This document shows positions 1,262 through 46,425 of a stretch of DNA of 64,000 nucleotides, piece by piece. Below the pieces are notes generated by a model. It did not search any database. It saw only the letters and a list, made by a program, of their open reading frames with translations, and was not told the DNA's origin. Each line of letters opens with the position of its first letter. The stretch's first letter is position 1. Where the stretch lies: assembly GCA_030430495.1 (NCBI GenBank), contig JAUIKM010000001.1:202447-266446 (forward strand), in the 5' to 3' direction. Source of the DNA: a bacterium. Lineage in GTDB: Bacteria > Bacteroidota > Ignavibacteria > Kapaibacteriales > UBA7675. The position numbers and the translations under genes are program-made.

Positions 1262-4054
1262 ATGAGCAAAACACGGAAAAAAAGCGACGTCGCCGATACC
1301 GGTAAAGACGCCGCGGTCGAAGATTCTCCCGCCGATCAAACCCCAACCAAACGAACCAGCAAACGCACCGCAGCCAAAAAGGCGCCGAGCGCGGCGTCCA
1401 AACGCGCCGCTGCAAAAGCGGACGACGGCGACGCAGTTGAAAAAGCTCCGCCCAAAAAGCGCAAAGCCGCTCCGCGCAAAAAAGCTGCCGCCAAAGCGCC
1501 AGCCAAGGCCAAGGCTGCTGCAACCGACTCCAAATCCCGCTCTGCAAGCGAGGTTAAGGACGCGCAGGATGAACTGTTCGGCGCTGGTGAATCGAGCGGT
1601 ACAAACAAAAAAGCCACGCCTGCACGGAAAAGCAGCACACGCCGCAAAGCTCCGGCCAAAAGCACTGCCGCCAAAGAAAAGCCGGCCGTAGCTGAAACCG
1701 CTGCCGACTTGGACGACAGCGCTGCGGAGACGCCGAAACCCAAAGCCAAACGCGCACCGCGCAAAGCCGCCCCGAAAGCGAAAGCCGCGCCCAAAAAAGC
1801 CGCGAGCCGAGCGAAAAAAGCTGAACCAGCCGACGTCGATACGGCCGATGCTGCCGAGAGCGCCGAGGAAACGCCCGCTAAAGCACCCGCCAAAAAACGT
1901 CCGGCCGCAAAGTCCAAAGCCGCGAGTACGTCCCGCAGCCGCAAGAGCAGCGCCAAAACCGCGCCGCAAGAGACGCCGGACGAAGCGCCCGAAGCCGCTG
2001 TGACCGAAAGCGATGAAGCCGAAAGCGCACCGAAACGCAGTACGCGTCGCAAAGCCGCGCCGAAAAAGTCTCCGGCTAAAACGACAAAAGACAAAGCGGT
2101 CGAAGAAACCGCGGCGATCGAAGCGGAACAGGCTGAAAGTGCGGGCGACGGCGAATCCGACGAACAGGCCGATCAAAGCCAAACCAGATCGCGTCGCTCA
2201 GGCCGTGGACGCCGTGGCGGCCGAGGTCGTCGTGGTGGAGAACGTTCCGAAGAGCGGGAAGCCGCCGGAGACGATCAACGCGACGAAGAGCAGGACCAGG
2301 ACAAAGAACAGCGCAAACCGCTGCGTCGCAAAGGCGAAGTAGATCCGAAAAAAGACGAGGCCGAGGGAGGCGAAGATTCAGCTCCCGAGCAAGCTCCCGC
2401 GCGCAAAAAATACGACCACGGTTTTGGCGAAATCGATCTGCGTCCGCAGTTGAATGAATCCGGCCCGGATGAGTCGGTTAACACGCTGGACGAGATCGAA
2501 TTGGACGAGCTGCCGCCGCGTATGCGCCAGGCCGTCGAAAACTTCGGCTGGGACAGTCTGATGCCGGTCCAGAGCCGCTCGATTCCCTACATGTTGGCGG
2601 GTCGCGACCTGATGGTGCAATCCAAAACGGGCAGCGGTAAAACGGCGGCATTCCTGCTGCCGATTCTCGAGCGAATCGATACCTCGCTGCCGCAGTGCCA
2701 GGCACTGGTGCTTGTGCCGACGCGCGAGCTGGCGCACCAGGTTGAAACGGAAGCACAGACCCTGGCGCAGGGACTTGGCGTTCGCATTGTCGCCGTCTTC
2801 GGCGGCGTCGGCTACGGCTCGCAGTTGCAGGCTTTCCGCGAAGGAGCGCAGCTCGTCATCGGAACGCCGGGACGCATTCTGGATCACATGCTGAAGCGCT
2901 CGCTGACGCTCGAAGCGCTGCAGATGCTGGTGCTGGACGAAGCCGATCACATGCTGTCGATGGGTTTTTATCCCGACATGAAACGCGTGCAGACCTTCCT
3001 GCCGCGCAGCAACTACAACGCCTACATGTTTTCGGCCACCTTTCCGCCGCGCGTGGTGCGCCTTTCCGACGAATTTCTTTGGAAGCCCGATTTTGTTAGT
3101 CTCAGCAAAGATCAGGTTCACGCCATCCAGACTGAGCACGTCATTTACGCCGTGCCGGACATGGACAAGGACCGCAGTTTTGTCAGGATTCTCGAAATCG
3201 AAAACCCGGCCAACGCCATTATTTTCTGCAACACCAAGGTCCAGGTCAACTACGTGGCCGTTGTGTTGCAGCGTTTTGGTTTCGACGCGGATGCGCTCAG
3301 TTCCGACCTGTCGCAGGGCGAACGCGAGCGTGTGCTGTCGCGCGTCCGTGCCGGCAATCTGCGCTTTCTGGTAGCCACGGATGTGGCGGCGCGCGGGATT
3401 GATATTCCCGAGCTCTCGCACGTATTTCAGTTCGACGTACCGGAAGATCCCGAGTCTTATATCCACCGTTCGGGCCGCACGGGCCGCGCCGGATCGACGG
3501 GACGCGCCATTACGCTGGCCGACTTCCAGGACCGCATCAAACTCGAGCGCATCGGCGCGCGTTATCAGATTGAATTTGTGGAGCGCCCGCTGCCGACGGA
3601 TGACGACATCGCCACGGTGGTGTCGCAGCGCGTCACGGTGCTGCTGGAATCGCGTTTCCGTTCGCGCGACAATGTGCAGCTCGAAAGTCTGGAGCGCTTC
3701 ACTAAACTGGCGGCAGCACTCGGCTCCGACGAAGACGGCTCGCGCCTGCTGGCAATGATGCTCGACGACTTCTATAAGTTTTCGCTGCATACGCCGCCGC
3801 CGCCACGTCGCGGCCGCGACGACCGACGTCAGGAGCCTCGCTCCGGCGGCGGACAACAGGACGCCCCGCGCGACCAGTACGCCGAGCAGGCGGAACAAGC
3901 CGAACAGGAGCATGACACCGACCGTGAGCGGGACCAGGACCACGACAATCGCGACGGCGGTGGAGATCGTCGCGACGGCGGCGGAGATGGTCAGGGCGGT
4001 CGCGGTCGAGGCGGACGTCGACGCCGCGGAGGCAGGAGACGGCGGAGGAACTAG
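1262..4054 (+). CDS. DEAD-box ATP-dependent RNA helicase (DeaD/RhlE-like) with ~370-aa N-terminal K/A/P-rich histone-H1-like low-complexity extension and C-terminal RGG/RD-rich tail
   Basis: Motifs in the translation: SKTGSGKTAAF (Walker A), PTRELA, VLDEADHM (DEAD), FSATFP (SAT), HRSGRTGRAG (motif VI). The N-terminus is made of AAKKAP/KRKAAPRKK repeats. The C-terminus is GGRGRGGRRRRGG. Confidence 0.9.
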   Translation: MSKTRKKSDVADTGKDAAVEDSPADQTPTKRTSKRTAAKKAPSAASKRAAAKADDGDAVEKAPPKKRKAAPRKKAAAKAPAKAKAAATDSKSRSASEVKDAQDELFGAGESSGTNKKATPARKSSTRRKAPAKSTAAKEKPAVAETAADLDDSAAETPKPKAKRAPRKAAPKAKAAPKKAASRAKKAEPADVDTADAAESAEETPAKAPAKKRPAAKSKAASTSRSRKSSAKTAPQETPDEAPEAAVTESDEAESAPKRSTRRKAAPKKSPAKTTKDKAVEETAAIEAEQAESAGDGESDEQADQSQTRSRRSGRGRRGGRGRRGGERSEEREAAGDDQRDEEQDQDKEQRKPLRRKGEVDPKKDEAEGGEDSAPEQAPARKKYDHGFGEIDLRPQLNESGPDESVNTLDEIELDELPPRMRQAVENFGWDSLMPVQSRSIPYMLAGRDLMVQSKTGSGKTAAFLLPILERIDTSLPQCQALVLVPTRELAHQVETEAQTLAQGLGVRIVAVFGGVGYGSQLQAFREGAQLVIGTPGRILDHMLKRSLTLEALQMLVLDEADHMLSMGFYPDMKRVQTFLPRSNYNAYMFSATFPPRVVRLSDEFLWKPDFVSLSKDQVHAIQTEHVIYAVPDMDKDRSFVRILEIENPANAIIFCNTKVQVNYVAVVLQRFGFDADALSSDLSQGERERVLSRVRAGNLRFLVATDVAARGIDIPELSHVFQFDVPEDPESYIHRSGRTGRAGSTGRAITLADFQDRIKLERIGARYQIEFVERPLPTDDDIATVVSQRVTVLLESRFRSRDNVQLESLERFTKLAAALGSDEDGSRLLAMMLDDFYKFSLHTPPPPRRGRDDRRQEPRSGGGQQDAPRDQYAEQAEQAEQEHDTDRERDQDHDNRDGGGDRRDGGGDGQGGRGRGGRRRRGGRRRRRN

Positions 4055-5310: not shown

Positions 5311-6351
5311 ATGTTTCGTCGTTATCTCATCCTGTCGCTCGCGATTGGTTCGGGCCTCATTTTCTTCGCGTGCGGTGCCGAACAAAAAGAAGCCGAGCCG
5401 ATGGAGGAAGCAGCAGAACAAACTGCCCTTGAGTCCGGCATTGTCAACGTCTACACACATCGCCATTATCCGGCCGACAAAGAGCTGTACGCCGAGTTCA
5501 CCAAACAAACCGGTATCGAAGTCAACGTCGTATCCGCGGGAGCCGATGAGCTGATCAAACGCCTGGAAACGGAGGGCGACAAAAGCCCGGCCGACCTGCT
5601 GATTACCGTTGACGCCGGTCGTCTGCATCGCGCGATGGCGCTCGGTCTGCTGCAACCGGTTTCGACGCCGACGCTGCAGGAAAACGTACCGGCACATCTG
5701 CGCGACAAGGACAATAACTGGTACGGCCTGACCGTGCGTGCGCGCATCGTAGCTTATGCGCCGGATCGCGTAGATCCGAAGAAGCTGGAAACCTATTCGG
5801 CCCTGGCCAACAAAGAGTGGAAAGGCAAGCTGCTTGTCCGTTCGTCCTCGAACGTCTACAACCAGTCGCTCATGGCTGCCATGATTGAACACAAGGGCGC
5901 GGACAAAGCCGCCGAATGGGCCAAAGGCATCGTCGATAATATGGCGCGCACTCCGGCGGGCAACGACCGCGATCAGATCAAAGGTATTGCGGCCGGCCTG
6001 GGCGATATCGCCGTCGTCAACTCGTACTACTACAACATGATGCAGCATTCCGACGACGAAGCGGAGCGCGAAGCGGCCTCGAAAGTTGAAATCACCTTCC
6101 CGCATTTTGATGGCGGCGGCATTCACATCAACGTCAGCGGCGCGGGCGTGACCAAAAGCGCGGCGAACGCCGAAAACGCAATCAAACTGCTGGAATTCCT
6201 GACGTCCGAAGCCGCACAGCGCAAATTCGCGGAAGCCAACTTTGAGTATGCCCTGAAAGACGACATTAAATACGACGGCATCTCGCTTGGTAAACTCGGC
6301 GAAAACAATGAAAAAGCCGTGATGATCTTCGATCAGGTCGGGTGGAAGTAA
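5311..6351 (+). CDS. fbpA: Fe3+ ABC transporter periplasmic substrate-binding protein (FbpA/AfuA/FutA family)
   Basis: Signal peptide with Cys (LIFFAC). Blocks align to Haemophilus FbpA: VNVYTHRHY ~ VYNGQHK, EGDKSPADLLIT ~ EGDKTPADVFYT, EWKGKLLVRSSSN ~ KWKGKIGYVSTSG, VVNSYYYNMM ~ LINNYYWYNL. Confidence 0.85.
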   Translation: MFRRYLILSLAIGSGLIFFACGAEQKEAEPMEEAAEQTALESGIVNVYTHRHYPADKELYAEFTKQTGIEVNVVSAGADELIKRLETEGDKSPADLLITVDAGRLHRAMALGLLQPVSTPTLQENVPAHLRDKDNNWYGLTVRARIVAYAPDRVDPKKLETYSALANKEWKGKLLVRSSSNVYNQSLMAAMIEHKGADKAAEWAKGIVDNMARTPAGNDRDQIKGIAAGLGDIAVVNSYYYNMMQHSDDEAEREAASKVEITFPHFDGGGIHINVSGAGVTKSAANAENAIKLLEFLTSEAAQRKFAEANFEYALKDDIKYDGISLGKLGENNEKAVMIFDQVGWK

Positions 6352-6384
6352 GCGGCGCACGGCGCGGCATCACGGGCTCCGGGT

Positions 6385-8082
6385 ATGCAGCAACACTCCG
6401 TTCGCGGAACCAATTCGTCTGAAAAGCCGACAAACAGGGAAGGCTCCCGCTCCTGGCGACACATGATCCGTCCCGGGAGACATGCGCGTTCCTGGTTTGT
6501 AAGCACGGCCCTGCTCGTGATTGCCGTCTCAATGCCGGCAATCTACGTGGCGCTGCACGTATTCGGCGGCTCCAACCCCGTCTGGGACCACCTGGCCGCC
6601 ACGGTGCTGACCGACTATATCGTCAACACGTTCATTCTGATGCTGGGCGTCGCCGTTCTGGTGACGCCCGTCGGCGTGCTCTGTGCCTGGCTGATTTCGG
6701 CTTACGATTTTCCGGGGCGCGCCTGGCTGGAATGGGCGCTGGTACTGCCGCTGGCCATGCCCGCCTACATCACCGGCTACGCCTGGTCGGGAATTTTTGA
6801 ATACGGCGGACCGGTTGACTCGCTGGCCGCATTCCTGGGTTCTGGTTCCTCGCTCGGGATCGACATTTTCTCCGTTTATTTCCTCGCTGCGCTGTTTGCA
6901 TTTGTCCTGTATCCCTACGTCTACCTTGTGGCGCGCAGCTCCTTTGCGCGTCAGTCGGCCGGATTGATCGAGGCGGCGCGTTTGACGGGCGCCGGCAATT
7001 GGGAAGTGTTTCGTCGCGTGGCGATGCCGCTGGCGCGTCCCGCGGTGGCCGGCGGTCTGGCGCTCTGCCTGATGGAGGTGCTGAACGACTACGGCGCGGT
7101 TAAATACTTCGGCGTTTCGACCTTCACGACCGGGATATTTCGCGCGTGGTTTGCCCTGGGCGACACGGGCGCCGCCGTTCGCCTTGCCGCCGTCCTGATG
7201 CTCTTTGTCTTTGTTTTGATCGTGCTGGAACGCCGCGGTCGCGCGCGAACAGCCGTCTCATCATCCGCCACAATGCGCCGTCAGACTCTGCGGGGAAAAA
7301 AGGCCCTTCTGGCCCTGATTTTCTGTTTAGTCCCGCTTTCGCTCGGATTTGTCTTTCCCGTAGTGCGACTGTTGACCTGGGCCTGGCGCACGGCGTCCGA
7401 TGTGTTGGACCTGCAGTTTGTCTATCTGGTGCTCAACAGTTTTGCACTTGCGCTCGGCAGCGCGGTTCTGTGCTGTGCCGCGGCGATCTTGGTGCTGTAT
7501 ACGGCGCGCCTGCAGCGCACGCGCCTGGCCGGTTTCCTGGCGCAGAGCGCCACACTCGGTTATTCGATTCCTGGAGCGGTCATTGCCGTCGGCGTCATGA
7601 CGCCCTTTGCGGCCATCGACCACGGAATCGACGGTCTTGTGCAGTCGCTCACCGGCAGCGGAACCGGACTTCTGTTGAGCGGCACGCTGATTGCGTTGTT
7701 GTATGCCTATTTATCGCGTTATCTTGCGGTGGCTTTTCAGCCTGTCGACGCCGGATTTGAGCGCACGGCCGCGTCGATGGACGAAGCCGCGCGTTCGCTT
7801 GGCGCTTCGCCCTTGCGTGCTTTGCTGCAGATCAACATTCCGATGGTGCGCACGGCCATCCTCAGCGCAATTATCCTGGTCTTTGTCGACGTGCTCAAGG
7901 AATTGCCTCTGACGCTGATTTTACGTCCGTTTAACTTTGAAACGCTGGCGACGCGCGCCTTTGAATTCGCCGGCAACGAACAACTGGCGGAGGCGGCCAA
8001 TCCGGCTCTGCTGATCGTAGCCGTCGGCGTCATTCCCATCGTTTATCTCAATCGTCTCATGAATGCAAAACAGGCGCGATGA
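6385..8082 (+). CDS. fbpB: Fe3+ ABC transporter permease, fused double-membrane-domain type (FbpB/FutB-like)
   Basis: 565-aa polytopic membrane protein with two repeated permease halves. Located between the fbpA-like and fbpC-like genes. The true start may be the internal ATG near 6463 (MIRPGRH...). Confidence 0.8.
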   Translation: MQQHSVRGTNSSEKPTNREGSRSWRHMIRPGRHARSWFVSTALLVIAVSMPAIYVALHVFGGSNPVWDHLAATVLTDYIVNTFILMLGVAVLVTPVGVLCAWLISAYDFPGRAWLEWALVLPLAMPAYITGYAWSGIFEYGGPVDSLAAFLGSGSSLGIDIFSVYFLAALFAFVLYPYVYLVARSSFARQSAGLIEAARLTGAGNWEVFRRVAMPLARPAVAGGLALCLMEVLNDYGAVKYFGVSTFTTGIFRAWFALGDTGAAVRLAAVLMLFVFVLIVLERRGRARTAVSSSATMRRQTLRGKKALLALIFCLVPLSLGFVFPVVRLLTWAWRTASDVLDLQFVYLVLNSFALALGSAVLCCAAAILVLYTARLQRTRLAGFLAQSATLGYSIPGAVIAVGVMTPFAAIDHGIDGLVQSLTGSGTGLLLSGTLIALLYAYLSRYLAVAFQPVDAGFERTAASMDEAARSLGASPLRALLQINIPMVRTAILSAIILVFVDVLKELPLTLILRPFNFETLATRAFEFAGNEQLAEAANPALLIVAVGVIPIVYLNRLMNAKQAR

Positions 8083-9152
8083 TCAATCCGCAGTTGAGTA
8101 TTGTCGAGTTTAATGGCGTTACCAAGCGCTACGTCACATCCGAAGCTCCGGCGGTGAACGAGGCCACGTTTTCCATTCAGCGCGCCTGCATCACGGCTCT
8201 GCTGGGCGGCAGCGGCAGCGGCAAAAGCACCGTCCTGCGCCTGCTGGCCGGTCTGGAAACGCCCGAAGCGGGATCGATAGTGCTGGCCGGAAATACCGTC
8301 AGCGACGGCCGGACTTTTGTCCCGCCCGAGAAGCGCAACATCGGCCTGGTATTTCAGGATTACGCGCTTTTTCCGCATCTGACGGTTAAACAAAACATTG
8401 AATTTGGTCTGGGTAAAAAGAGTAAACAGGATGGGCAACGCGCCCGCTCCATGCTTGAGCTTGTTGAACTCGATCAACTGGGACATCGTTATCCGCACGA
8501 GCTGTCCGGCGGGCAGAGACAGCGGGTGGCGATTGCACGTGCGCTGGCGCCGCAGCCGGATATCCTGTTGCTCGACGAGCCGTTTTCCAACCTGGACGAT
8601 GCGCTAAAAGCGCATGTGCGCCGCGATTTGACGCGTATTATTCGCACGGCCGAGATGACCGCCGTCTTTGTCACGCACGACGTCCGCGATGTCTTTGCCG
8701 CCGCAGATCGACTGATTGTTCTGGACGATGGACATGTGCGCCAGGCGGGCCGTCCCGACGAGGTGTACCAACAACCGGCCAATCCCGGCGTTGCCCGCAT
8801 TTTTGGCGAAACGACAATCATCAAAGCGCAGTCCCACGGCAACATGGCGCATACCGCCTTTGGCGAAATTGATCTCGGCGTGCCGGAAATCCCCTCCAAC
8901 ATGTTAATCTGTTTAAGACCGGGCGATCTGCAAATTGCCGCGCAAACCGAATCGGGTTTACAGGCCGTTGTTGAATGCACGACCTTTTTTGGCATGTACA
9001 ACGAGCTATTGCTGCGTTTAACACCCGCCGATTCAACGACGGAGCCCGTCCATCTCACTCTTCCACTGTCCTGCGACGAATCATATTCTCCCGGCGCCCG
9101 ACTGACGCTGACGCGGGCAGTGCGACGCATCCACTTCTGGCCGGCCGACTGA
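8079..9152 (+). CDS. fbpC: Fe3+ ABC transporter ATP-binding protein with C-terminal TOBE-like domain (FbpC-like)
   Basis: GGSGSGKST Walker A, LSGGQRQRVAIARAL signature, LLLDEPFSNLD Walker B. The start overlaps the permease stop (ATGA). Confidence 0.9.
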   Translation: MINPQLSIVEFNGVTKRYVTSEAPAVNEATFSIQRACITALLGGSGSGKSTVLRLLAGLETPEAGSIVLAGNTVSDGRTFVPPEKRNIGLVFQDYALFPHLTVKQNIEFGLGKKSKQDGQRARSMLELVELDQLGHRYPHELSGGQRQRVAIARALAPQPDILLLDEPFSNLDDALKAHVRRDLTRIIRTAEMTAVFVTHDVRDVFAAADRLIVLDDGHVRQAGRPDEVYQQPANPGVARIFGETTIIKAQSHGNMAHTAFGEIDLGVPEIPSNMLICLRPGDLQIAAQTESGLQAVVECTTFFGMYNELLLRLTPADSTTEPVHLTLPLSCDESYSPGARLTLTRAVRRIHFWPAD

Positions 9153-9722
9153 GACTGAATCGTTGTCGGGACAGGGACTGTAACATTCTCACAAAGGCAT
9201 CGCCGCTATTTCATGCGCGGCTCTTTTCTTTTTGTTCGTCACGCAGATAGAAGTGACAAGCATGACAAACAGGAGTACTTCTTGCAGATGATCTGTCAAC
9301 GCCAGGTCTGCATCAAACAAAACTGTCACCGGGTGCGGAGTCGGTTTTTGAGTATTATCATCAATTCGGATTCGATTATTTCCGAAACCACCTGAATGGT
9401 TTCAAGTCCCTGTTAACTTCGAACGCCACGCGGTCGGCGGATCAAAGTTTGAGACACCGTACTTTCAAAGACAAACCCACTGTCTGATCACATTGGACAC
9501 CGGCCTGCATTGCACATTCATTCGGTGATCTCGTTCAACTGCTCTCGGATTGCGATGCAAACATGGTTTGCCGATTGTCCGCGCCGGCGCCGGCTTCCGA
9601 GCGACAACTGAGCAGGCGCTGTATCCAAATCCGCAATAGAAATCATCGATTGAGAATCCTCTGGCGCCAATAGGTACTTCACCGCTCCGAACGCAAATCA
9701 ACGAAAATCCGACCGTTCAGAG

Positions 9723-13788: not shown

Positions 13789-15099
13789 TTAATTGCGTGG
13801 AATTTTCAGGACCTGCCCGATGTAGATCCGATCAGGTCGCCGAATATTGTTAAATCCCATAATACGGCTTATTGAGGAACCGTGGCGCGCGGCAATGCGC
13901 GAAAGTGTGTCGCCGCTCCGCACGCGATACGTTATGACCGGCGGGGCGGAACTTTTGTCGGCGGCTGGAATGCGGTCTATGGCGTAGGCCACCTCGGCCT
14001 CAGTTAACTCGCTCGGCACGCGGATGCGCGTTCCCTTGGGAATCATCAGATCCTGGCTGAATACACGACTGCGTACCGCCGGGTTGATCAGACGCATCGT
14101 CTCAAGGTCCATGCCGAGATACTTGACCAGGACCGACGGTTTGATCCAGTGCTCCAGTACCAGTTCGCGAAATTCGCGTTTGGGCCTGAAATCAATCTCG
14201 TCAAAGTATTCTTCCGGGTTTTCAGCGATGTCCGACGCCGCGATAAAACAGGCGTAGAAATTGCGCGAGGAAAACTTGAAGGTGCGGCTGGAGTGTTTGG
14301 TGAGCACCGTTTCAAAATCGTTGCTGCCCAGGGTTGTCACGGCGCGGCGGATGCCGTTGATCCCGTAGTTGTAGCCCGTAATCGCCAGCGGCCAGTTGTC
14401 CACCTGAGCAAAATTGCCGGCCAGCATTTCGGCCGCGGCATACGTCGAATAAATCGGGTCGAGACGTTCGTCGACGTAATCGTTAATCTCCAGGTATTCG
14501 CGTCCGGTTCCACGCATAAACTGCCACATGCCCGCCGCGCCGGCGTGCGACATCGCATTCGGCAGGAACGACGATTCAACATGCGGCAGATACGCCAGCT
14601 TTTCGGGCACGTCAAACTTGCGCAGAATAAATTTAATCGTGTCCAGGTACATTCCGCTCAGGCGCAGCCCCTCCATAAACCGCTCTTTCTGTCCATTCTG
14701 AAAACGAATGCGATCAATGGCATCGTCCAGCGCGCCCTCTTCGCCGTGCTCCTCAAACAGCTTGGCAATCTTTTTGTCCAGATCGCTCCACTTTTCACTG
14801 GGTGAAGACTTTATGCGTTTTATCGACTCTTCGATCGGTTTGCGAATGGCGCGAATATACTGGCGGCGTTCGTCGCCTTCGCGCTCGCCTATTTCGTATT
14901 CGCCGTAAATCACCATCGGGTATTCGTGGTCGTGCAGCAGCCCCTTGTTCAGCGGAACCTCGGAATAGATCTTTTTCCAGAAGGCGACGTTGTCTTCAAT
15001 GATACCCGGCTTGGTAAAAACTTCGGCCTGTGCGCTCAGGCACAAACAAAAAAACAGGCACAGTGCCAGTGCCTGTCCGCGGTAATGTATATGCTGCAT
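13789..15099 (-). CDS. Membrane-bound lytic murein transglycosylase D-like (SLT domain + C-terminal LysM)
   Basis: SLT signature ESSFLPNAMSHAGAAGMWQFM. LysM: YRVRSGDTLSRIAARHGSSISRIMGFNNI...IYIGQVLKIP. Signal peptide after MQHIHYRG, so the start was moved in from the ORF-track 15144. Confidence 0.8.
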   Translation of the reverse strand: MQHIHYRGQALALCLFFCLCLSAQAEVFTKPGIIEDNVAFWKKIYSEVPLNKGLLHDHEYPMVIYGEYEIGEREGDERRQYIRAIRKPIEESIKRIKSSPSEKWSDLDKKIAKLFEEHGEEGALDDAIDRIRFQNGQKERFMEGLRLSGMYLDTIKFILRKFDVPEKLAYLPHVESSFLPNAMSHAGAAGMWQFMRGTGREYLEINDYVDERLDPIYSTYAAAEMLAGNFAQVDNWPLAITGYNYGINGIRRAVTTLGSNDFETVLTKHSSRTFKFSSRNFYACFIAASDIAENPEEYFDEIDFRPKREFRELVLEHWIKPSVLVKYLGMDLETMRLINPAVRSRVFSQDLMIPKGTRIRVPSELTEAEVAYAIDRIPAADKSSAPPVITYRVRSGDTLSRIAARHGSSISRIMGFNNIRRPDRIYIGQVLKIPRN

Positions 15100-15850
15100 G
15101 TTGCTTCCTGTGTCGTAACGTCTTGCGTCCGCCGGCCGGGTCATTCCTTCCTCTTAACCCGCCCGCGTGAATTTATAAAATTCCGGGAAACTTCAATGGC
15201 TGACGAGCGCAACAAGTTTGTGTTGTGCTTTGTTCCACCCGTTTTGACTCGATTATGGTCTTTTTACCTTCTTTTTTGGGTCCGACTGCCAAGTCGTTTA
15301 CAACATTGTACCGCAGGTAATTTTCCGGCGACTGCCTGATTATTTTGTTTGTCATGCGGATAGAAGCGGCAGGTCCCCGCACAGCCGCGTGTCCCGGGGT
15401 GAACAGGGACAATGCCCTTGCAGGCCGCGGAGATTGCCCGCGCCTGCGGCGCGTCGCTTAACGCCGGGTTGCCGGAGGGAACACCATCCGGAAATACGTC
15501 GCAACTTTGAACCTTCACCGTTGAACTCCGCCGCTTAACCGCACAACGGCTTCCGTGATGATTGCGCGATACAACCGCAGCCGAAAATTCACTTCGCTGC
15601 CGTCGGCGGCGCAGAAGCGGAATCATTGATCGCTGGAACGCGCGAACGTCTGAATGCGACAATTCCGCAGCGCACGTCTGTCGTTTACCGGGTAAACAGA
15701 GTTCACCGGGTAAACAGAGTGCACCGGCGAATAAACTGCGCCGCATCAGATAAAGCGCGGGGAATGCGGTCGGGCAATCCGGCTTCAGCCTGTTGAACAG
15801 CCCGGCGCTGTAACATTTGAACATCAAATTGCATGCTGCGGCGCTCAGCA

Positions 15851-16212
15851 TTCACCGGTGAACTGTGAATTCAACACGGATCCGAAAGGGAAGAACACCC
15901 CTTGCGGCCGCGCCGCGTCAGGCCGGGCGACGCCTGCCAATACGCGCAGCGTGAATTGCGTCGCGGCCGAATGTGAAAACGGCCGCTTCACAATTTCACA
16001 GCTTCACATCGGCGCAATGTGTTCACAAGTGGAAGTGAAAATGAGGAGTGTTTAGCCGGGAATGAAGCGGCGGAATTATCACCTAAAGTGAATATATGAA
16101 CGTGTGAAACAGCAAAAGCCCGCTGTTGAAGAAGTGAATCAAATCGCGTTTCACATTCCGCCGCTGCTGTTTACAGTCTGATTCACTGCGTTAAAAGCGT
16201 GAAAAAGTTCAC
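15851..16212. promoter_or_regulatory. Array of about 17 GTGAA/TTCAC (TGTGAA/TTCACA) half-sites, followed (16213-16396) by a strongly AT-rich tract; oriC-like DnaA-box cluster or operator array
   Basis: Counted directly. Palindrome TTCACCGGTGAA (15851-62). Three phased TTCACA copies (15987-16008). TTCAC-N8-GTGAA (16022-39). GTGAA-N11-TTCAC (16134-54). The pentamer is expected about once by chance in this length. Confidence 0.5.
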
Positions 16213-16396
16213 TTTTTACACATTTCGGGTCAAAAAACGGTACTTTTTCCAATTAATTAACTCATTAGCTATTGCATCGGCCTGTTTAATGTTGTAGATT
16301 TGAAACAGTTTTTTAGGTTAAGTCCAATTTCGCAGCAGCAATTTTCTTTAATACAACAGTATCTCTTTTCTTTAACGATTGAATTGGTAGTCAACT

Positions 16397-17074
16397 ATGG
16401 ATTCGAACACAGTAGCTGATCGTTTGCGTGAATTCGGTCAGGAGAAGTACGGCAACATGACGCAATTTGCCGGCGCTCTCGGAATGTCCCCCCAGGCGCT
16501 TTCGCCGTACCTTAACGGACGTCGCAACCCCGGCAAACGCATGCTTGCCAAACTTGAACAACTCGGTGCGAATCCGGGCTATATCTCCGGTGAAGGCGAA
16601 GGCGGCAGTGCACCTGCGGCTTCCGCAGCCCCGGCGGCAGCAGCTCCGGCTAAAAAGCGCCGCGGCCGTAAACCCAAAGCCAAACCCGCCGCTGAAGCAG
16701 CGCCGAAAAAGGCAAAAGCTCCGGCCGCCAAAAAAGCTAAAGCCAAAACCAAGGCAAAAGCTAAACCCGCAGCAGCAGCCAAACCCGCTGCTGAAGCCGC
16801 TCCCAAGAAAGCCAAAGGTCGTCCCGGCCGCAAAAAAGGTTCCACAGCAGTTAAAGCCGCGCCGAAGAAACGCCGCGGTCGTCAGCCCAAAGCTGCTGTT
16901 GCCGCAACCAGCGCCGTTTCGGCTGCCGAAATGCAATTGCTCGAATACCTGCGCAAAATTGGCCTGGCCAGCGTAGATTCGGTCGTTAACCTGCTTGAGT
17001 CGATCAAAACCGTTTCCGACGAAGACTACATGAAGAAATTCCGCCGCGCCAAGCCGCGTAAGATCGTCAAGTAA
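16397..17074 (+). CDS. HTH_XRE (Cro/C1-type) DNA-binding domain fused to K/A-rich histone-H1-like region with AT-hook-like motifs (KRRGRKPKA, KGRPGRKKG, KRRGRQPKA)
   Basis: The N-terminus MTQFAGALGMSPQALSPYLNGRRNPGKRMLAKL is a typical XRE HTH. The middle 120 aa are AAAPAKK repeats. There is a short structured C-terminal tail. Confidence 0.7.
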   Translation: MDSNTVADRLREFGQEKYGNMTQFAGALGMSPQALSPYLNGRRNPGKRMLAKLEQLGANPGYISGEGEGGSAPAASAAPAAAAPAKKRRGRKPKAKPAAEAAPKKAKAPAAKKAKAKTKAKAKPAAAAKPAAEAAPKKAKGRPGRKKGSTAVKAAPKKRRGRQPKAAVAATSAVSAAEMQLLEYLRKIGLASVDSVVNLLESIKTVSDEDYMKKFRRAKPRKIVK

Positions 17075-17110
17075 GTCCGTCCGACACGACATTGCGAAAG
17101 CAATCCTTAA

Positions 17111-17137
17111 CGCACCGTGTGAACTTCACACGGTGCG
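17111..17137 (+). terminator. Perfect hairpin cgcaccgtgtgaa-ct-ttcacacggtgcg followed by ttgtatgttttaaa
   Basis: It lies 37 nt after the stop of the 16397-17074 gene. The stem itself contains the TGTGAA/TTCACA motif. Confidence 0.6.
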
Positions 17138-17628
17138 TTGTATGTTTTAAAGCGCGGCCCTGAACACCGGTCCACGTGCGTTGACAGCGCGGAACGCGAT
17201 ACTACCACCGAACTCCAGGCCTTGCGTTCAATTCGTCTAAGGCATTTCAACACAATAAGTTGTGAGTGGTGTATTCACAAGTTGCTGCAAGCGCTGTGGA
17301 GTGAATCAGACGCCGTTTTGCTCTAGTTTCTACTGTGTTAATTCGGGCCTTTAACAGCTTCGTGACGAGGCGACGGGCATTTCCGGACCTGATCCATGTA
17401 AACTTCGAGCAGTGCGCCTGAATGCGATGCACGGACCTTGATACGGCACGTCCGGTGCGTTGCAGATCTACGCAGACATTGAACAGGGGATTGAGCGGCA
17501 TACAACTGATTCTACGGCTCCAGACATGCCGAACCCAGCCCGCGGGGGGATTTCACCATCATATGCTTTTGTGCGGCACACTGAAGGGCGGGGCTAAACA
17601 GAAAATCATGCCTGGAGAAGCAGCAGGA

Positions 17629-19032
17629 TCAGACCGGGAATTTCAAGGTGAAGGTCGAACCTTTGTCGAGTTCACTTTCGACGCTGACTGAGCCCTTGTA
17701 CATTTCCATGACGTGTTTCACGATGGCCAGGCCAAGACCGCTGCCGCCGAGTTCACGTGAACGCGCTTTGTCGACGCGGTAGAAACGTTCAAAAATACGG
17801 CCCAGATCTTCCTTCTTGATGCCGCGGCCGGTGTCGGCAACCTTGATGATGCACTTGCCGCCTTCGAGGAAAGAATGCACCGTAACGGAGCCTTTTTCCG
17901 TGTATTTAACAGCGTTGTCCATCAGGTTAATAATGGCTTTGTCGAGGTGGTAGGTGTCGACGAGCAGCCTGAAGTCCACGGGCAGTTTATTGTCGTAGTT
18001 AAGCGCCAGGCCTTTGTCGCGCGCCTTGCGGTTGAAGTCTTCCAGCAGGTTGCGAATGTAGTCTTCCAGGCGAATATAACGCTCGTCGCGGCTCTGCTGA
18101 TAGGATTCCAGACGCGAAAGGTCGAGCATGTCGTTGACGATTATTTCCAGGCGTTCAACGTTGGAAAGGGCGCGTTCCAGGAAACGGCGATTAACCTGTT
18201 TGTTTTCGAGCGCGCCGTCCAGCAGTGTTTCAACGTATCCCTTGATGGCGCTTACCGGCGTTTTTAACTCGTGTGAAGCGTTGGCGATAAAGTCGCGGCG
18301 CACTTCCTGCACGCGTTCGTATTGCTCGATGTTTGAGCGAAGTTTCTCGCCCATCGATTTAATCGAGCGGCCCAGTTCGCCGATTTCGTTGCGCTGATTG
18401 ATGTCCGGCGTCGTCGAGTAGTTTCCGTCGGCAATCCGTTTGGTCATGCCGATGAGATGTGAAATCGGCCGCGTTAAATAACGCGAGAGATTAAGAATGG
18501 AAAGCAGGGCAATGAGTGAGGAGACGGTGGCGGCGATTACGAGAATGAAGCGGATCTTGAGCACGTTGTCATCGATAAAATCGAGGTCGTGAGCGATCCG
18601 GATAATATAACCGCTGGGAGCGTCGTAGGCGGTGTAAAGCAGGTTCTGCTGTAGCGTCTGACTGTATCGACGCGAGTTGCCGAAGTGATCCGGGCTGTTG
18701 AGCGCCTGAACGACCTCGTCGCGTTCGATGTGATTTTCCAGCGGTGTTTCATTAACATCGACGCGCGTATCCAGGATCACATTCCCGACGCTGTCGATAA
18801 GCGTAACACGGGCCCCGACGTAACCGGCCAGTCGATCGACAACGGCGTAGGAGTTGCCGTTGTACTGCAGCAGCGACTCATCAATGAGCTGGCACTGCGT
18901 TTTCATGTTTTCGACCAACTGGTCCTGCATATTTTGCTGCAGCAGATTTTCCGCCGTCAGCAGCAGAACCAGTGAACAGACCAGATAGAGACCGATGAAG
19001 ATTATCGAAAGCTGGGAATGGACTTTGCGCAT
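17629..19032 (-). CDS. Sensor histidine kinase (PhoR/EnvZ-like; 2 TM, HAMP, HisKA, HATPase_c)
   Basis: H-box ASHELKTPVSAIKGY. ATPase GGSGLGLAIVKHVMEMYKGSVSVESELDKGSTFTLKFP. It is immediately downstream of the response regulator. Confidence 0.9.
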   Translation of the reverse strand: MRKVHSQLSIIFIGLYLVCSLVLLLTAENLLQQNMQDQLVENMKTQCQLIDESLLQYNGNSYAVVDRLAGYVGARVTLIDSVGNVILDTRVDVNETPLENHIERDEVVQALNSPDHFGNSRRYSQTLQQNLLYTAYDAPSGYIIRIAHDLDFIDDNVLKIRFILVIAATVSSLIALLSILNLSRYLTRPISHLIGMTKRIADGNYSTTPDINQRNEIGELGRSIKSMGEKLRSNIEQYERVQEVRRDFIANASHELKTPVSAIKGYVETLLDGALENKQVNRRFLERALSNVERLEIIVNDMLDLSRLESYQQSRDERYIRLEDYIRNLLEDFNRKARDKGLALNYDNKLPVDFRLLVDTYHLDKAIINLMDNAVKYTEKGSVTVHSFLEGGKCIIKVADTGRGIKKEDLGRIFERFYRVDKARSRELGGSGLGLAIVKHVMEMYKGSVSVESELDKGSTFTLKFPV

Positions 19033-19770
19033 TTAGTCAATCAACTGAACAAATTTGTAGCCGACGCCCTGAACGGTTTGAATGTGCCGGGCATAGTTGT
19101 TGAGTTTCTTGCGAATCTTCGTGACATGCACGTCGACCGTCCGTTCAATCTGATAGGCGTCTTCACCCCAGACATTATACAGGAGGTCCTTGCGGGAGAA
19201 GACAATACCCGGACGTTTCATCAGAAAATACAACAAATCGAACTCTTTGGGCAGAAGTTTGATCTCGACTTCGGCGACTTTGACGGTATAACTGAGGCGA
19301 TCTATCTCAACTTCGCCGATTTTGATGATTTCCTTGTCTGCGCCGCGGAACTTGTTAAGGCGCTCTTTCTGGCGGAAAATAGCGCGCACTTTGGCGGTGA
19401 TAACGCGCGGGCTGAATGGTTTGGTCAGGTAGTCATCCGCACCCAACTCAAGGCCGAGCACTTCGTCCACTTCTTCGGATTTGGCCGTCAGGAACACAAC
19501 GGATGCGTTCTTCAGCTTGGAATTCTGGCGCAGGGCCTTGCACACTTCGTAGCCGTCGAAGCCTGGCATCATGATGTCGAGCAGGATTACTTCGGGCATC
19601 ACGCGGTCCGCTATCGTCAATGCGTCCTTGCCGTTGTCCGCGGTGTAGACCTTGTATCCTTCGTTGCCGAGATTATACGAAAGGATCTCAAGAATATCGC
19701 GTTCGTCGTCGACGCAAAGAATGATTTTGTCTTTTTTCACGACTGCTGCACTCCTGCTGTATAAAAGCAT
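19033..19770 (-). CDS. OmpR/PhoB-family response regulator (REC + winged-helix)
   Basis: KIILCVDDERDILEILSYNL...ILLDIMMPGFDGYEVC. Winged helix LLPKEFDLLYFLMKRPGIVFSRKDLLYNVWG...VDVHVTKIRKKL. The ORF-track N-terminal 68 aa are probably not translated; the start is the ATG at 19770 or the GTG near 19738. Confidence 0.85.
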   Translation of the reverse strand: MLLYSRSAAVVKKDKIILCVDDERDILEILSYNLGNEGYKVYTADNGKDALTIADRVMPEVILLDIMMPGFDGYEVCKALRQNSKLKNASVVFLTAKSEEVDEVLGLELGADDYLTKPFSPRVITAKVRAIFRQKERLNKFRGADKEIIKIGEVEIDRLSYTVKVAEVEIKLLPKEFDLLYFLMKRPGIVFSRKDLLYNVWGEDAYQIERTVDVHVTKIRKKLNNYARHIQTVQGVGYKFVQLID

Positions 19771-20420
19771 GATTTGAGACGTTCGTGCCCGATTTGCCGT
19801 GCACAAACTGAATTTGTTGATCGCCTGTGCGCGAATTTCCGGCTTAAACAGATCCGTCTGACGGGCTGCTCGCTCGCTGAAATCCGTCGTTTTTGCTGTG
19901 ACCTGGAAGAATCTGTGGTGGCGGGGAATGTGCGGAAGTAACCAGGAGGGGTGTTTAAAGACGATGCGCTGCATTGCAGACGCAGTTCTGCCGGCGGACG
20001 CGTTGCCGCCGTCGGATTCGACGCATTGCGCCCATTCTCACCTGAATCGGCCTGCCGCGTCCGCACCTGCCGAAAGGAAGGCGCGAGTCGCTCTGACTTT
20101 TGTCGATCGGACAGGTCCAATCCAATGCGGGCTGACGTCATAGATTCCTTACCGCCGGACAATCATTGTCTTTCTGCTGCAAAAATATGTCCTTTATGTA
20201 AACCTCATGTTTGTCACATATTAATAAGGTGTAAAATGGCCGGAACGCAAAACGGCGGCGCAGATTGTTGCGTCGCCGTTTCAGCTTCGTTTCGCTGTGG
20301 AGCAAGGCCCGCCGTCGGGTGGAGATCGGCGCAAGCTGCGTCTGCACGGCTCATCCGGCACCGAAATTGCCGCGTCCGAATCACCGATCAGGCGCCCTTG
20401 GCCGGCCGGGCCGATTGACC

Positions 20421-21347
20421 TCAATTGTGGTTGAGTCCACTGTTTGCGCGCACCGCCGTCTGCAGCTGCTGAATTCCGAGTTTTTTGCCGGCAGAGGCAT
20501 TAAACTCCAGTGTTTTGATCGGATAGGGAATCGTGATGTCATGTTGACTGAATGCACTGCTTATGCGCATGATTGCTTCCGACTTGGCTTCCATCCACAA
20601 GCCGATGTTGTCATCTTTTAACCAGAAACGCGCGACGAGTTCGATTGCACTGTCGCCGTAGTCGAGGAAGAGCACTTCGATTTCGCGATCGCGGTCTCGC
20701 ATACCAATATTTTGCAGCGCCTCGTTGAGTACGCTTTGCACTTTTTCCAGGTCTTCACCGAAAGCGACGGCCAGTCCGATGTCGATGCGGCGTTGTTTGC
20801 TGGAGTCGAAATTTACGACCACATCGTTGTACAGCAGTTTATTTGGAATGATGACGTCGTGACCGTGGTAGGAGCGAATCGTTGTTGTGCGCATGTGCGT
20901 GCCGCGCACCCAGCCCTCAAATTCACCGATGCGCACGAGGTCGCCCGGTAAAATCGGCTCGCGCACGGCAATTCCGATTCCGGCTATGACGTTGACAATC
21001 GTTTCCTGAAACGCGAGACTGACGGCCAGACCGAGTATCCCCGCACCGGCAAGCAGTGAAGTCACCGTTTTGTCCAGCTCCAGAATGCCGAGCGCGGCGA
21101 ACAATCCCAGGACCATTACCGCAAAGAACGTCAGCGTTTCCAGCAGTTTTCGCAGGCTGGAATTCAGCTTGTTTAATCGGTCCAGCAATCCGTGCAGGCC
21201 CGTGCGCGAAAGGCGCGCCAGGAAATAAAAACACAGCAGCGTAACGATCGCAAATACGATGCGCGGAAAAAAGTCGGATATGTCCCCGATTAACTCAAGG
21301 CCCGAGTTGAAAGACTGTTGTACAACGTTGGACAAGTCGTTCAGCAT
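20421..21347 (-). CDS. Small-conductance mechanosensitive channel (MscS family)
   Basis: TM helices plus the conserved MscS beta-domain: GDLVRIGEFEGWVRGTHMRTTTIRSYHGHDVIIPNKLLYNDVVVNF. Confidence 0.85.
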   Translation of the reverse strand: MLNDLSNVVQQSFNSGLELIGDISDFFPRIVFAIVTLLCFYFLARLSRTGLHGLLDRLNKLNSSLRKLLETLTFFAVMVLGLFAALGILELDKTVTSLLAGAGILGLAVSLAFQETIVNVIAGIGIAVREPILPGDLVRIGEFEGWVRGTHMRTTTIRSYHGHDVIIPNKLLYNDVVVNFDSSKQRRIDIGLAVAFGEDLEKVQSVLNEALQNIGMRDRDREIEVLFLDYGDSAIELVARFWLKDDNIGLWMEAKSEAIMRISSAFSQHDITIPYPIKTLEFNASAGKKLGIQQLQTAVRANSGLNHN

Positions 21348-31956: not shown

Positions 31957-32130
31957 GATTTGGGCTCGATGACTTTGGGCTCGACGGCTGGTTCCGGGAC
32001 TCGGCCGCTTCGCACCGGTCACGCACGCGGGACCTGGAGGTTTTGGGCTCGACGGCTGGTTCCGGGACTCGGCTGCTTCGCACCGGTCACGCACGCGGGA
32101 CCTGGAGGTTTTGGGCTCGACGGCTGCCCG
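31957..32130. repeat. Tandem direct repeat, 68-nt unit (ttgggctcgacggctggttccgggactcggcYgcttcgcaccggtcacgcacgcgggacctggaggtt) x ~2.4
   Basis: Two full units differ by a single C/T, plus a truncated third. It lies in the 1.2-kb non-coding region upstream of the 32276 kinase gene. Confidence 0.75.
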
Positions 32131-43929: not shown

Positions 43930-44553
43930 TTGACCCCGGTTTTTTTTCGTGTAACATCGATATGCCGTCGTGCATTTCTGCTGGAGTCGATGATGAAGTC
44001 AATTGATTATCCGGCTCTGAGTGACGAAGACCTGTTTGAACTGGTCAAGCGTCACAACGACAAAGTCGCCTTCGATGTGCTCTATAAACGCTACGATCGC
44101 CGTCTGTTTTCCTACTGCCTGCGGGCGATGGAAGACCGGGACGAAGCCAAAGATGTGTACCAGCAGGCAATCATGAATATCTATGCCAAGCGGGACACCT
44201 TCAAAGGCGGTAGCTACGTAGCCTGGTTAATGACCATCGTTCGCAATCAGTGCCTGATGGCCAAGCGCGGCAAAAAGTACACGCGCGACGTCGATGAAAT
44301 GCAGAACGTCCTCGTGGCGAGCGACTCCGTCGGCGCGACCGACCACGGACTCAACGAAGCGGTACACAAAGCCGTTGACTCATTACCGGCGGATTTCAAA
44401 GAAGTTGTCGCGATGCGCTACTTCGATGAATTTTCTTACGAACAGATCGCCCAGACACTGGGAATTTCGATGTCTCTTGTCAAAGTGCGTCTGTTTCGAG
44501 CTAAAAAACTGTTGCTTGAAGCACTGTCTCCATATCGGGAGGAGCTTCTATGA
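43930..44553 (+). CDS. ECF-type sigma-70 factor (RpoE-like)
   Basis: Region 2 (YQQAIMNIYAKRDTFKGGSYVAWLMTIVRNQC). Region 4 HTH (VVAMRYFDEFSYEQIAQTLGISMSLVKVRLFRAKKLL). The probable true start is MMKSIDY near 43990. Confidence 0.85.
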   Translation: MTPVFFRVTSICRRAFLLESMMKSIDYPALSDEDLFELVKRHNDKVAFDVLYKRYDRRLFSYCLRAMEDRDEAKDVYQQAIMNIYAKRDTFKGGSYVAWLMTIVRNQCLMAKRGKKYTRDVDEMQNVLVASDSVGATDHGLNEAVHKAVDSLPADFKEVVAMRYFDEFSYEQIAQTLGISMSLVKVRLFRAKKLLLEALSPYREELL

Positions 44554-46299: not shown

Positions 46300-46425
46300 G
46301 AGGCGAAGTGTCAGGAGACAAGAAGTGAAATGTCAGGCGTCGGAAATCGAAGTGTCAGGAGACAAGAAGTGAAATGTCAGGCGTCAGAAGGCAAACGTCA
46401 GAAGGCAAACGTCAGGAGTTAAACA
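46300..46425. repeat. Tandem repeats: ~42-nt unit (gaagtgtcaggagacaagaagtgaaatgtcaggcgtc) x2 then agaaggcaaacgtc x2; GTCAGG recurs 6 times
   Basis: Read directly. It lies immediately downstream (3' side) of the 46430-48358 gene. It is preceded by a 16-nt inverted repeat cttttgtttgtcaYtg (46176-91 / 46260-75). Confidence 0.6.

Follow-up and report, generated by a model that had tools for sequence, protein, structure and literature searches.

The 64-kb stretch of contig JAUIKM010000001.1 analyzed here (the window, in whose coordinates all positions are given) carries a gene for an SLT-LysM lytic transglycosylase on the left and a gene for a helix-turn-helix (HTH) protein on the right, separated by a 1252-nt spacer that holds a dense array of the pentamer TTCAC and its complement GTGAA, either of which is counted as a site (Table 1). 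Direct counting finds 17 pentamers, 8 of them TTCAC and 9 GTGAA, in the 362 nt between 15851 and 16212, where the rate observed in the remainder of the window would give 0.82 copies. Local shuffles that preserve dinucleotides (n = 2000) gave 1.2 copies on average and 6 at most (Poisson P of ~2e-14 for 17 copies), and no second comparable TTCAC/GTGAA cluster was found elsewhere in the 64-kb window. The array is far beyond chance and is under selection. An initial annotation of this DNA had put the number of copies at about 17 in 360 nt with about one expected, in agreement with the 17 counted here and the expectation of 0.82 to 1.2; the individual repeats that it listed, namely, a palindrome, a set of 8-nt direct repeats, and inverted pairs with 8- and 11-nt spacers, are all present as well.

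The sites are separated by irregular gaps of 7 to 86 bp and their orientations are mixed, about half being inverted. Same-strand spacings are 7, 8, 8, 16, 19, 22, 26, 30, 32, and larger, with none of 10 to 12 nt, and no helical phasing (10.5- or 11-nt periodicity) of the array sites was found. The distal sub-cluster starts with the palindrome TTCACCGGTGAA (15851-15862). The middle one includes three direct TTCACA copies at 8-nt spacing (15987, 15995, and 16003, spanning 15987-16008) and the inverted pair TTCAC-N8-GTGAA at 16022-16039 (sites 16022 and 16035), and the promoter-proximal one includes the inverted pair GTGAA-N11-TTCAC at 16134-16154 (sites 16134 and 16150). Outside the pentamer there is little shared sequence: the base that follows the core on its 3' side is A in 8 of the 17 sites, the base that precedes it is T in 6, and the composition of the three bases on the 5' side is near random. 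The earlier statement that many sites extend to T(T/A)TTTCACA does not hold, as none of the 17 matches that 9-mer and only the 6 just mentioned have the preceding T.

Table 1. Features of the array locus, in window coordinates
Feature	Coordinates	Strand	Basis or comment
SLT-LysM lytic transglycosylase gene	13789-15144	-	Left flank
Remainder of spacer	15145-15850		SLT-proximal 15145-15300 conserved, then ~70%-identical stretch; 25% substitutions plus indels relative to L003
Array of 17 TTCAC/GTGAA pentamers	15851-16212	both (8 plus, 9 minus)	Counts, shuffles, interspecies conservation
Distal sub-cluster, 3 sites	15851-15869		Palindrome TTCAC-CG-GTGAA and a GTGAA 7 nt further; sequence
Middle sub-cluster, 7 sites	15951-16039		All 7 cores identical in L003
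Single TGTTTAGCC motif within array	16049-16057	+	Conserved in sister species; 5 copies of motif upstream of orthologous promoter in L006
Promoter-proximal sub-cluster, 7 sites	16088-16212		Sequence
AT-rich tract: upstream promoter region, core promoter, and ~90-nt 5' leader of HTH gene	16213-16396	+	31.5% GC
Putative Bacteroidetes/FCB-type sigma-A promoter, TTGC-N19-TAGATTTG	16272-16302	+	Consensus match and conservation
HTH gene, 225-aa product	16397-17074	+	PF01381 match, sequence reading
Predicted intrinsic terminator of HTH gene, AACGCACCGTGTGAA-C-TTCACACGGTGCGTT	17108-17140 (hairpin 17109-17139)	+	15-bp stem containing GTGAA-C-TTCAC

The evidence for selection comes from the orthologous loci L003 (at 194-215 kb on contig CAYULF010000003.1 of the metagenome-assembled genome [MAG] CAYULF01) and L007, which represent one sister species with 89.7% DNA identity to the window over 15 kb. 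Relative to L003, substitutions affect 2 of the 85 core bases but 47 of the 291 non-core bases of the array (Fisher p=0.0004). Resolved by position, change is seen in 0 to 6% of the sites at core positions 0 to 4 and in 24% of the sites at the flanking positions -1 and +5. In both L003 and L007, 16 of the 17 pentamers are found at identical offsets from the start codon, compared to ~7 of 17 that would be expected to stay intact at the non-core rate (binomial P of ~1e-5). The sister species has lost one site (16150) and gained two elsewhere, for a total of 18 sites versus 17, and where the center of the distal palindrome has changed from CCGG to CCTG in L003, both of its pentamers are kept. The 362-nt array is free of indels between the two species, whereas the spacer to its left has several, and the TTCAC copies in that part of the spacer (15145-15839) are unprotected, with 8 of 25 core bases changed in L003. 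Because the cores are conserved while their flanks and the copies outside the array change, these data indicate that the array is functional in its lineage and that the selected unit is the five bases of each site.

Two further orthologous loci are more remote. L006 belongs to a far more distant genome, whose SLT protein is 56% identical to that in the window, and has the same gene order (AlkZ, then the regulator-kinase pair, the HTH/AKP [Ala/Lys/Pro] gene, a 1.8-kb spacer, and SLT). Its equivalent spacer contains 8 TTCAC copies in 1839 nt, which is near background, with 3 or 4 of them in the 450 to 500 nt closest to the gene. L004, a 995-nt contig, carries a related gene, and the 320 nt present upstream of that gene contain a single TTCAC site. 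Attempts to extend the family yielded little: a search with the full-length HTH protein was dominated by its low-complexity tail and returned 2 hits, a construct without the linker returned none, a genome scan for further HTH loci yielded the sister species only, and a metagenome scan gave one weak hit. The best homologs of the SLT-LysM protein come from Chitinivibrionales and Chitinispirillales; taken with the gene content of the window, this suggests the Fibrobacteres-Chlorobi-Bacteroidetes (FCB) group, probably Fibrobacterota. At the loci of two distant homologs (L008 and L009), the synteny differs and is uninformative. The MAG that contains L003 is labeled "uncultured Hyphomicrobiales" and has a type IX secretion system (T9SS) sorting tail, TonB receptors with CarboxypepD_reg domains, TAnnTTTG promoters, and Chitinivibrionales-like homologs; this label is probably wrong, as the gene content points to the FCB group or Fibrobacterota.

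Between the array and the HTH gene lies the AT-rich tract. The lowest-GC 184-nt stretch of the window is 16202-16385 (30% GC versus 57% overall), so the observation that the most AT-rich stretch follows the array stands. The tract has an ordinary explanation for its low GC content, because a promoter and a leader lie there. The sequence TTGC-N19-TAGATTTG fits TTG-N17-23-TAnnTTTG, the sigma-A consensus of Bacteroidetes, in which the -7 box spans -12 to -5 (PMC9723704; bioRxiv 10.1101/172254), and the same pattern is found 50 to 80 nt upstream of the plus-strand genes at 43930 and 49780. Counting the window, four orthologous loci (the others being L003, L006, and L004) conserve the promoter block together with its spacer (CCTGTTTAATGTTG), and the tract as a whole differs from L003 by 2 of 181 bases. 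Transcription is inferred to start near 16307, which would leave a leader of ~90 nt and place the array at about -95 to -456. Inspection by eye of 16213-16396 revealed no sigma-54 promoter. From the promoter through the leader to codon ~70 of the HTH gene (16200-16610), identity to the sister species is ~99%, synonymous sites included, which could reflect either strong constraint or a recent recombination tract.

The product of the HTH gene combines three parts. Its N-terminal residues 4 to 55 match HTH_3 (PF01381) with 26.6 bits, above the curated cutoff of 23, and represent an XRE/CI-type HTH domain; this is followed by an Ala/Lys/Pro linker of ~110 residues that is predicted to be disordered and then by a C-terminal three-helix domain (residues 176 to 216). 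The latter assignment, as well as the four helices of the HTH domain, comes from a single-sequence AlphaFold2 model of low confidence (predicted local distance difference test score [pLDDT] of 57) that served for secondary structure only. GRP-type AT-hook-like motifs in the linker, read from the sequence without a profile match, include KGRPGRKK and the near matches RRGRKPK and RRGRQPK; the L006 ortholog has TRGRK only. The recognition helix, SPQALSPYLNGRRNPG, is identical in the L006 and L004 orthologs. Close relatives among 1.84 billion representative proteins form just two clusters, and the next relatives are CI/LexA-like repressors with S24 peptidase domains and proteins with 3 to 12 tandem copies of the HTH domain. 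Among the latter, P0124, P0125, and P0133 (700 to 2700 residues, 6 to 12 tandem copies of the same HTH type) show an unusual multi-HTH architecture. Comparison with solved structures gave only weak XRE matches for the protein, DdrO-like with E=0.006, and no significant match for the C-terminal domain. The terminator hairpin of the gene (17109-17139) contains the array word, as the initial annotation had pointed out, and is conserved in L003 with one stem mismatch. Further sites that it had placed at ~17273 and ~17301 do exist (at 17274 and 17301), but both are lost in the sister species and are not selected.

The best explanation of these observations, which we regard as probable while leaving ample room for doubt, is that the array represents a lineage-specific homotypic cluster of sites, of the form TTCAC, that a protein recognizes and that selection maintains, located upstream of the promoter of the gene for the nucleoid-protein-like HTH/AT-hook/Lys-Ala-tail protein. 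Many copies of a sequence-specific DNA-binding protein would load onto the array and set the output of the promoter. A 5-bp word that occurs in either orientation and at irregular spacing would suit monomeric reading heads on flexible tethers, and the HTH domain, being of a type common to CI/LexA-like repressors and to proteins with 3 to 12 tandem copies, can plausibly act as such a self-contained head. The simplest candidate for the binder would be the HTH gene's own product, because one HTH domain per chain on a long flexible tether tolerates both irregular spacing and mixed orientation. This protein, with its single HTH domain, a basic linker predicted to be disordered, and a small helical domain at the C terminus through which chains could be joined, would, by binding to the array, exert concentration-dependent feedback, as when a chromatin protein regulates its own gene.

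This explanation is weakest in its choice of binder, and several findings weigh against that choice or against the explanation as a whole. Array and protein do not co-occur in the way expected of an autoregulatory pair, as the L006 and L004 orthologs, with the identical recognition helix, lack the array. In the equivalent place, L006 has instead five copies of TGTTTAGRC, compared to 0.22 expected, and the true operator of the HTH protein may be this motif or the conserved spacer of the promoter. There is no overlap between the array and the promoter. The evidence for selection amounts to one pairwise comparison, and the array has been found in two species-level lineages only. The suggestion in the initial annotation of an operator or titration array for the adjacent HTH protein accordingly survives in part: the anatomy of the array and the selection on it fit, whereas the assignment of the HTH protein as the binder conflicts with the array-less orthologs. 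The TGTTTAGRC copies in L006 are located at 8410-8790 on the minus strand of that locus, at -140 to -510 from the orthologous promoter.

That the array serves a different factor as an upstream operator or activator platform appears unlikely but deserves to be taken seriously, and the fact that orthologs whose HTH domain is identical lack the array itself argues for another, lineage-specific binder. Candidates are a PhoB-like regulator (encoded at 19033-19740) acting at PHO boxes and, in view of the response-regulator/cyclase gene three genes away, a CRP-family protein. The adjacent regulator and kinase score best against PhoB and PhoR models, and the pair stays beside the HTH gene in L006. The PHO-box cores of Gram-positive bacteria resemble TTCAC, the B. 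subtilis core being TT(A/T/C)ACA. In S. coelicolor, the core is GTTCACC, similar to the array word, and PHO boxes consist of 11-nt direct repeat units arranged head to tail (PMC4415409). The array, with no same-strand pair 10 to 12 nt apart, no 10.5- or 11-nt phasing, and half of its sites inverted, does not have this organization, and the phased repeats beside the phosphate-porin gene in L006 read TGTTAC/TGTTAT rather than TTCAC; the PHO-box reading was rejected on spacing. As for CRP, the pair cGTGA-N6-TCACt at 16198-16213 does have the appropriate geometry, but it is the sole such pair in the array, so that 1 of the 17 sites has a CRP-type partner, with an 8/10 match to TGTGA-N6-TCACA, and this reading was rejected on geometry. 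The L006 repeats, TGTTACAgattTGTTATCgaatTATTGCA, form three 11-nt-phased units at ~3060-3110, upstream of a Porin_O_P gene that is located beside the PhoB/PhoR-like pair, and represent a candidate PHO box of this clade, unlike TTCAC.

It is still less probable that the array serves mainly to organize DNA rather than to regulate a gene, as a titration sink for an abundant protein of low specificity or as a platform on which such a protein nucleates, bridges DNA, or acts in a centromere-like manner. A 5-bp word gains specificity through multiplicity only, the number of sites is kept despite their turnover, and the array begins ~95 nt from the promoter and runs for 360 nt, all of which would fit such a role. 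The half-sites are also similar to the parS and P1 box-A words GTTTCAC/ATTTCAC. However, the array contains no full parS palindrome, there are no par, SMC-loader, or similar genes nearby, the array is the only one in 64 kb, and it adjoins a promoter whose flank is nearly frozen between the species.

A replication origin, the first choice of the initial annotation, is not supported on present evidence. In this reading, TTCAC(A) would be a variant DnaA box and the AT-rich tract an unwinding element, either of a chromosomal origin or of a DnaA-box cluster of the datA/DARS kind, and we consider it very improbable. The generic layout of an origin is there, with many asymmetric sites in both orientations at irregular spacing that adjoin the most AT-rich stretch in a long (1.25-kb) spacer. 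TTCACA corresponds to positions 4 to 9 of the relaxed box TTWTNCACA, which has 1 exact and 3 one-mismatch matches in 15972-16222, compared to ~0.3 expected, and a TGTGAAG array around a (TA)n tract by a primase-helicase gene on a viral contig (L013) suggests that such words can build an origin. Nevertheless, 13 of the 17 sites differ from even the relaxed box at two or more positions, and 15000-17500 contains no TTATCCACA box at one mismatch or fewer, as opposed to 8 such boxes scattered elsewhere in the window. The resemblance to a 9-bp DnaA box had been overstated: box positions 1 to 3 are near random, positions 3 and 9 are the least conserved between the species, and 5 of the 9 box positions are selected; moreover, the three sites with 8-nt spacing are so close that 9-mer boxes there would overlap. 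A literature search returned nothing usable on TTCACA as a DnaA box or on the oriC of Fibrobacter.

The surroundings do not favor an origin either. Neither dnaA, dnaN, nor any other replication gene is present in the window, and the syntenic spacer of L006 has neither the array nor DnaA boxes. The AT-rich tract contains a promoter and leader that are conserved with the gene also in orthologs without the array and would account for its low GC content; it is confined to one side of the array, and no DnaA-trio-like trinucleotide repeat was seen in it by eye. The cumulative GC skew of the window does have its minimum at 17253, but the skew at third codon positions (GC3) tracks the gene strand, and the cumulative curve is back to -180 by 56 kb, so that the skew of the window carries no usable signal. 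Gene orientation, which had been described as compatible with divergent replication, is not divergent past the immediate neighbors, as the genes at 5311-9152 on the left are on the plus strand and those at 17629-21347 on the right are on the minus strand. The prospects are equally slim for a variant in which an initiator would load onto 5-bp units rather than 9-bp DnaA boxes; such a locus, in an uncultured Fibrobacterota lineage, would be a chromosomal origin or would control one, and the adjacent HTH/AT-hook protein might serve it. A plasmid or mobile-element origin was rejected, there being no plasmid similarity at the DNA or protein level and no Rep gene.

A structured RNA, i.e., a long leader or a small RNA in which GUGAA pairs with UUCAC copies, is barely credible: the minus strand of 15940-16230 does fold better than shuffled sequences (z = -4.2), but this score follows trivially from the inverted copies of one word, the main long-range helix (16068-16077/16155-16164) takes three uncompensated changes in L003, there are no Rfam matches at the gathering threshold or at E=1, and a conserved promoter lies downstream of the array. 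Because the predicted helices between inverted copies break without compensation in L003, the array works as DNA.

The part of the spacer to the left of the array has features of its own. An 18-nt unit, GTTYACCGGGTAAACAGA, is present in 2.5 tandem copies at 15683-15727, each with the palindrome GTTTAC-CGG-GTAAAC, and the sister species has one unit fewer; this repeat looks like an operator for a dimeric regulator. A 55-nt block at 15780-15835, which holds the palindrome CTGTTGAACAG as well as TGTAACATTTGAACA, shows 100% identity to the sister species amid a spacer that is ~70% identical. The open reading frame (ORF) called at 15264-15851 on the minus strand is probably spurious, as its translation is Cys/Arg-rich and has no Pfam match. 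Other genes in the neighborhood include a response-regulator/cyclase gene three genes away, the PhoB/PhoR-like two-component pair, and genes for a K+/H+ exchanger, an MscS channel, an AlkZ glycosylase, HSP20s, topoisomerase IV subunits, and TonB-dependent receptors with CarboxypepD_reg domains; one protein encoded in the window has a T9SS sorting tail. Tandem repeats with 60- and 192-nt periods (75 to 86% matches) occupy 11-823, inside an ORF (8-1171) without a Pfam match, and short-read contigs of the same strain terminate at these repeats. At 31974-32126, upstream of a gene for a PAS histidine kinase, there are 2.2 tandem copies of a 68-nt unit with 98% identity, and the spacer that precedes 46430 contains 22/44-nt and 14-nt tandem repeats (46304-46415).

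Animal enhancers routinely contain dense clusters in which a single short site recurs 17 or 18 times, but in bacteria such clusters are rare outside replication origins, and selection on this one is measurable at single-base resolution. With a CI-type HTH domain, AT-hook-like motifs and an H1-like tail, and a small helical domain, the product of the HTH gene, from an uncultured FCB-group lineage, would represent an undescribed kind of bacterial chromatin-like protein. If it does read its own array, the locus would provide a simple model for how an abundant, weakly specific DNA-binding protein gauges its own free concentration; if another factor reads the array, it would be a ready-made high-affinity probe for that factor. 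The locus also offers the lesson that an array of words beside an AT-rich tract is insufficient to call an origin.

The array is best seen as a variation on an already known type of element, the operator or upstream-site array. Short operator units in either orientation are found in the omega repressor heptads WATCACW of pSM19035, the hexamer arrays of Fur, and the 8-bp metboxes of MetJ. As in these systems, the unit is short (5 to 8 bp) and is present in many direct and inverted copies at or near a promoter, where multiplicity would confer specificity and cooperativity; the word itself resembles the omega heptad (TTCAC versus ATCAC), and one run of three units is 8-bp spaced like metboxes. 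In contrast to those contiguous arrays of 2 to 10 units that overlap their promoters, however, the 17 units are spread over 362 bp upstream of approximately -95, and there is no ribbon-helix-helix or Fur gene near the array. PHO-box operators have a similar core word and variable numbers of units, and a PhoB/PhoR-like pair is encoded next door, but their 11-nt head-to-tail phasing is absent here and half of the sites are inverted (PMC4415409). With oriC, the locus shares asymmetric sites facing both ways, irregular spacing, an AT-rich neighbor, and a long noncoding region, and differs from it in a selected unit of 5 bp rather than 9, the lack of canonical boxes and of replication genes nearby, and the absence of the array at the syntenic locus of a relative.

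Iteron-type origins, such as the ori of SaPIs, provide another parallel. The viral contig L013 (IMGVR_UViG_3300033169_000019), which was found by a triple-repeat pattern, has 12 TGTGAAG/CTTCACA sites in both orientations around a (TA)n tract at 8840-9190, immediately ahead of a small HTH ORF and the gene for a VapE/PriCT-2 primase-helicase, and this array probably serves a phage or satellite as an iteron-type origin. Both loci have TGTGAA-type words facing both ways by an AT-rich tract and a small HTH gene. Those of L013, however, are found on both sides of the AT tract, have the longer unit TGTGAAG, and accompany a primase-helicase, whereas the window locus has no Rep gene, is chromosomal, and is syntenic across genera. 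Finally, fis, hns, and lsr2 have autoregulated nucleoid-protein promoters, in which the gene for an abundant, basic DNA-binding protein has AT-rich DNA and an extended site cluster upstream, much as here, so that feedback from the free pool of the protein is plausible for this locus as well. It differs from them in the new domain combination of its protein, a CI-type HTH with putative AT-hooks, an H1-like tail, and a small helical domain, and in a far higher density of sites.

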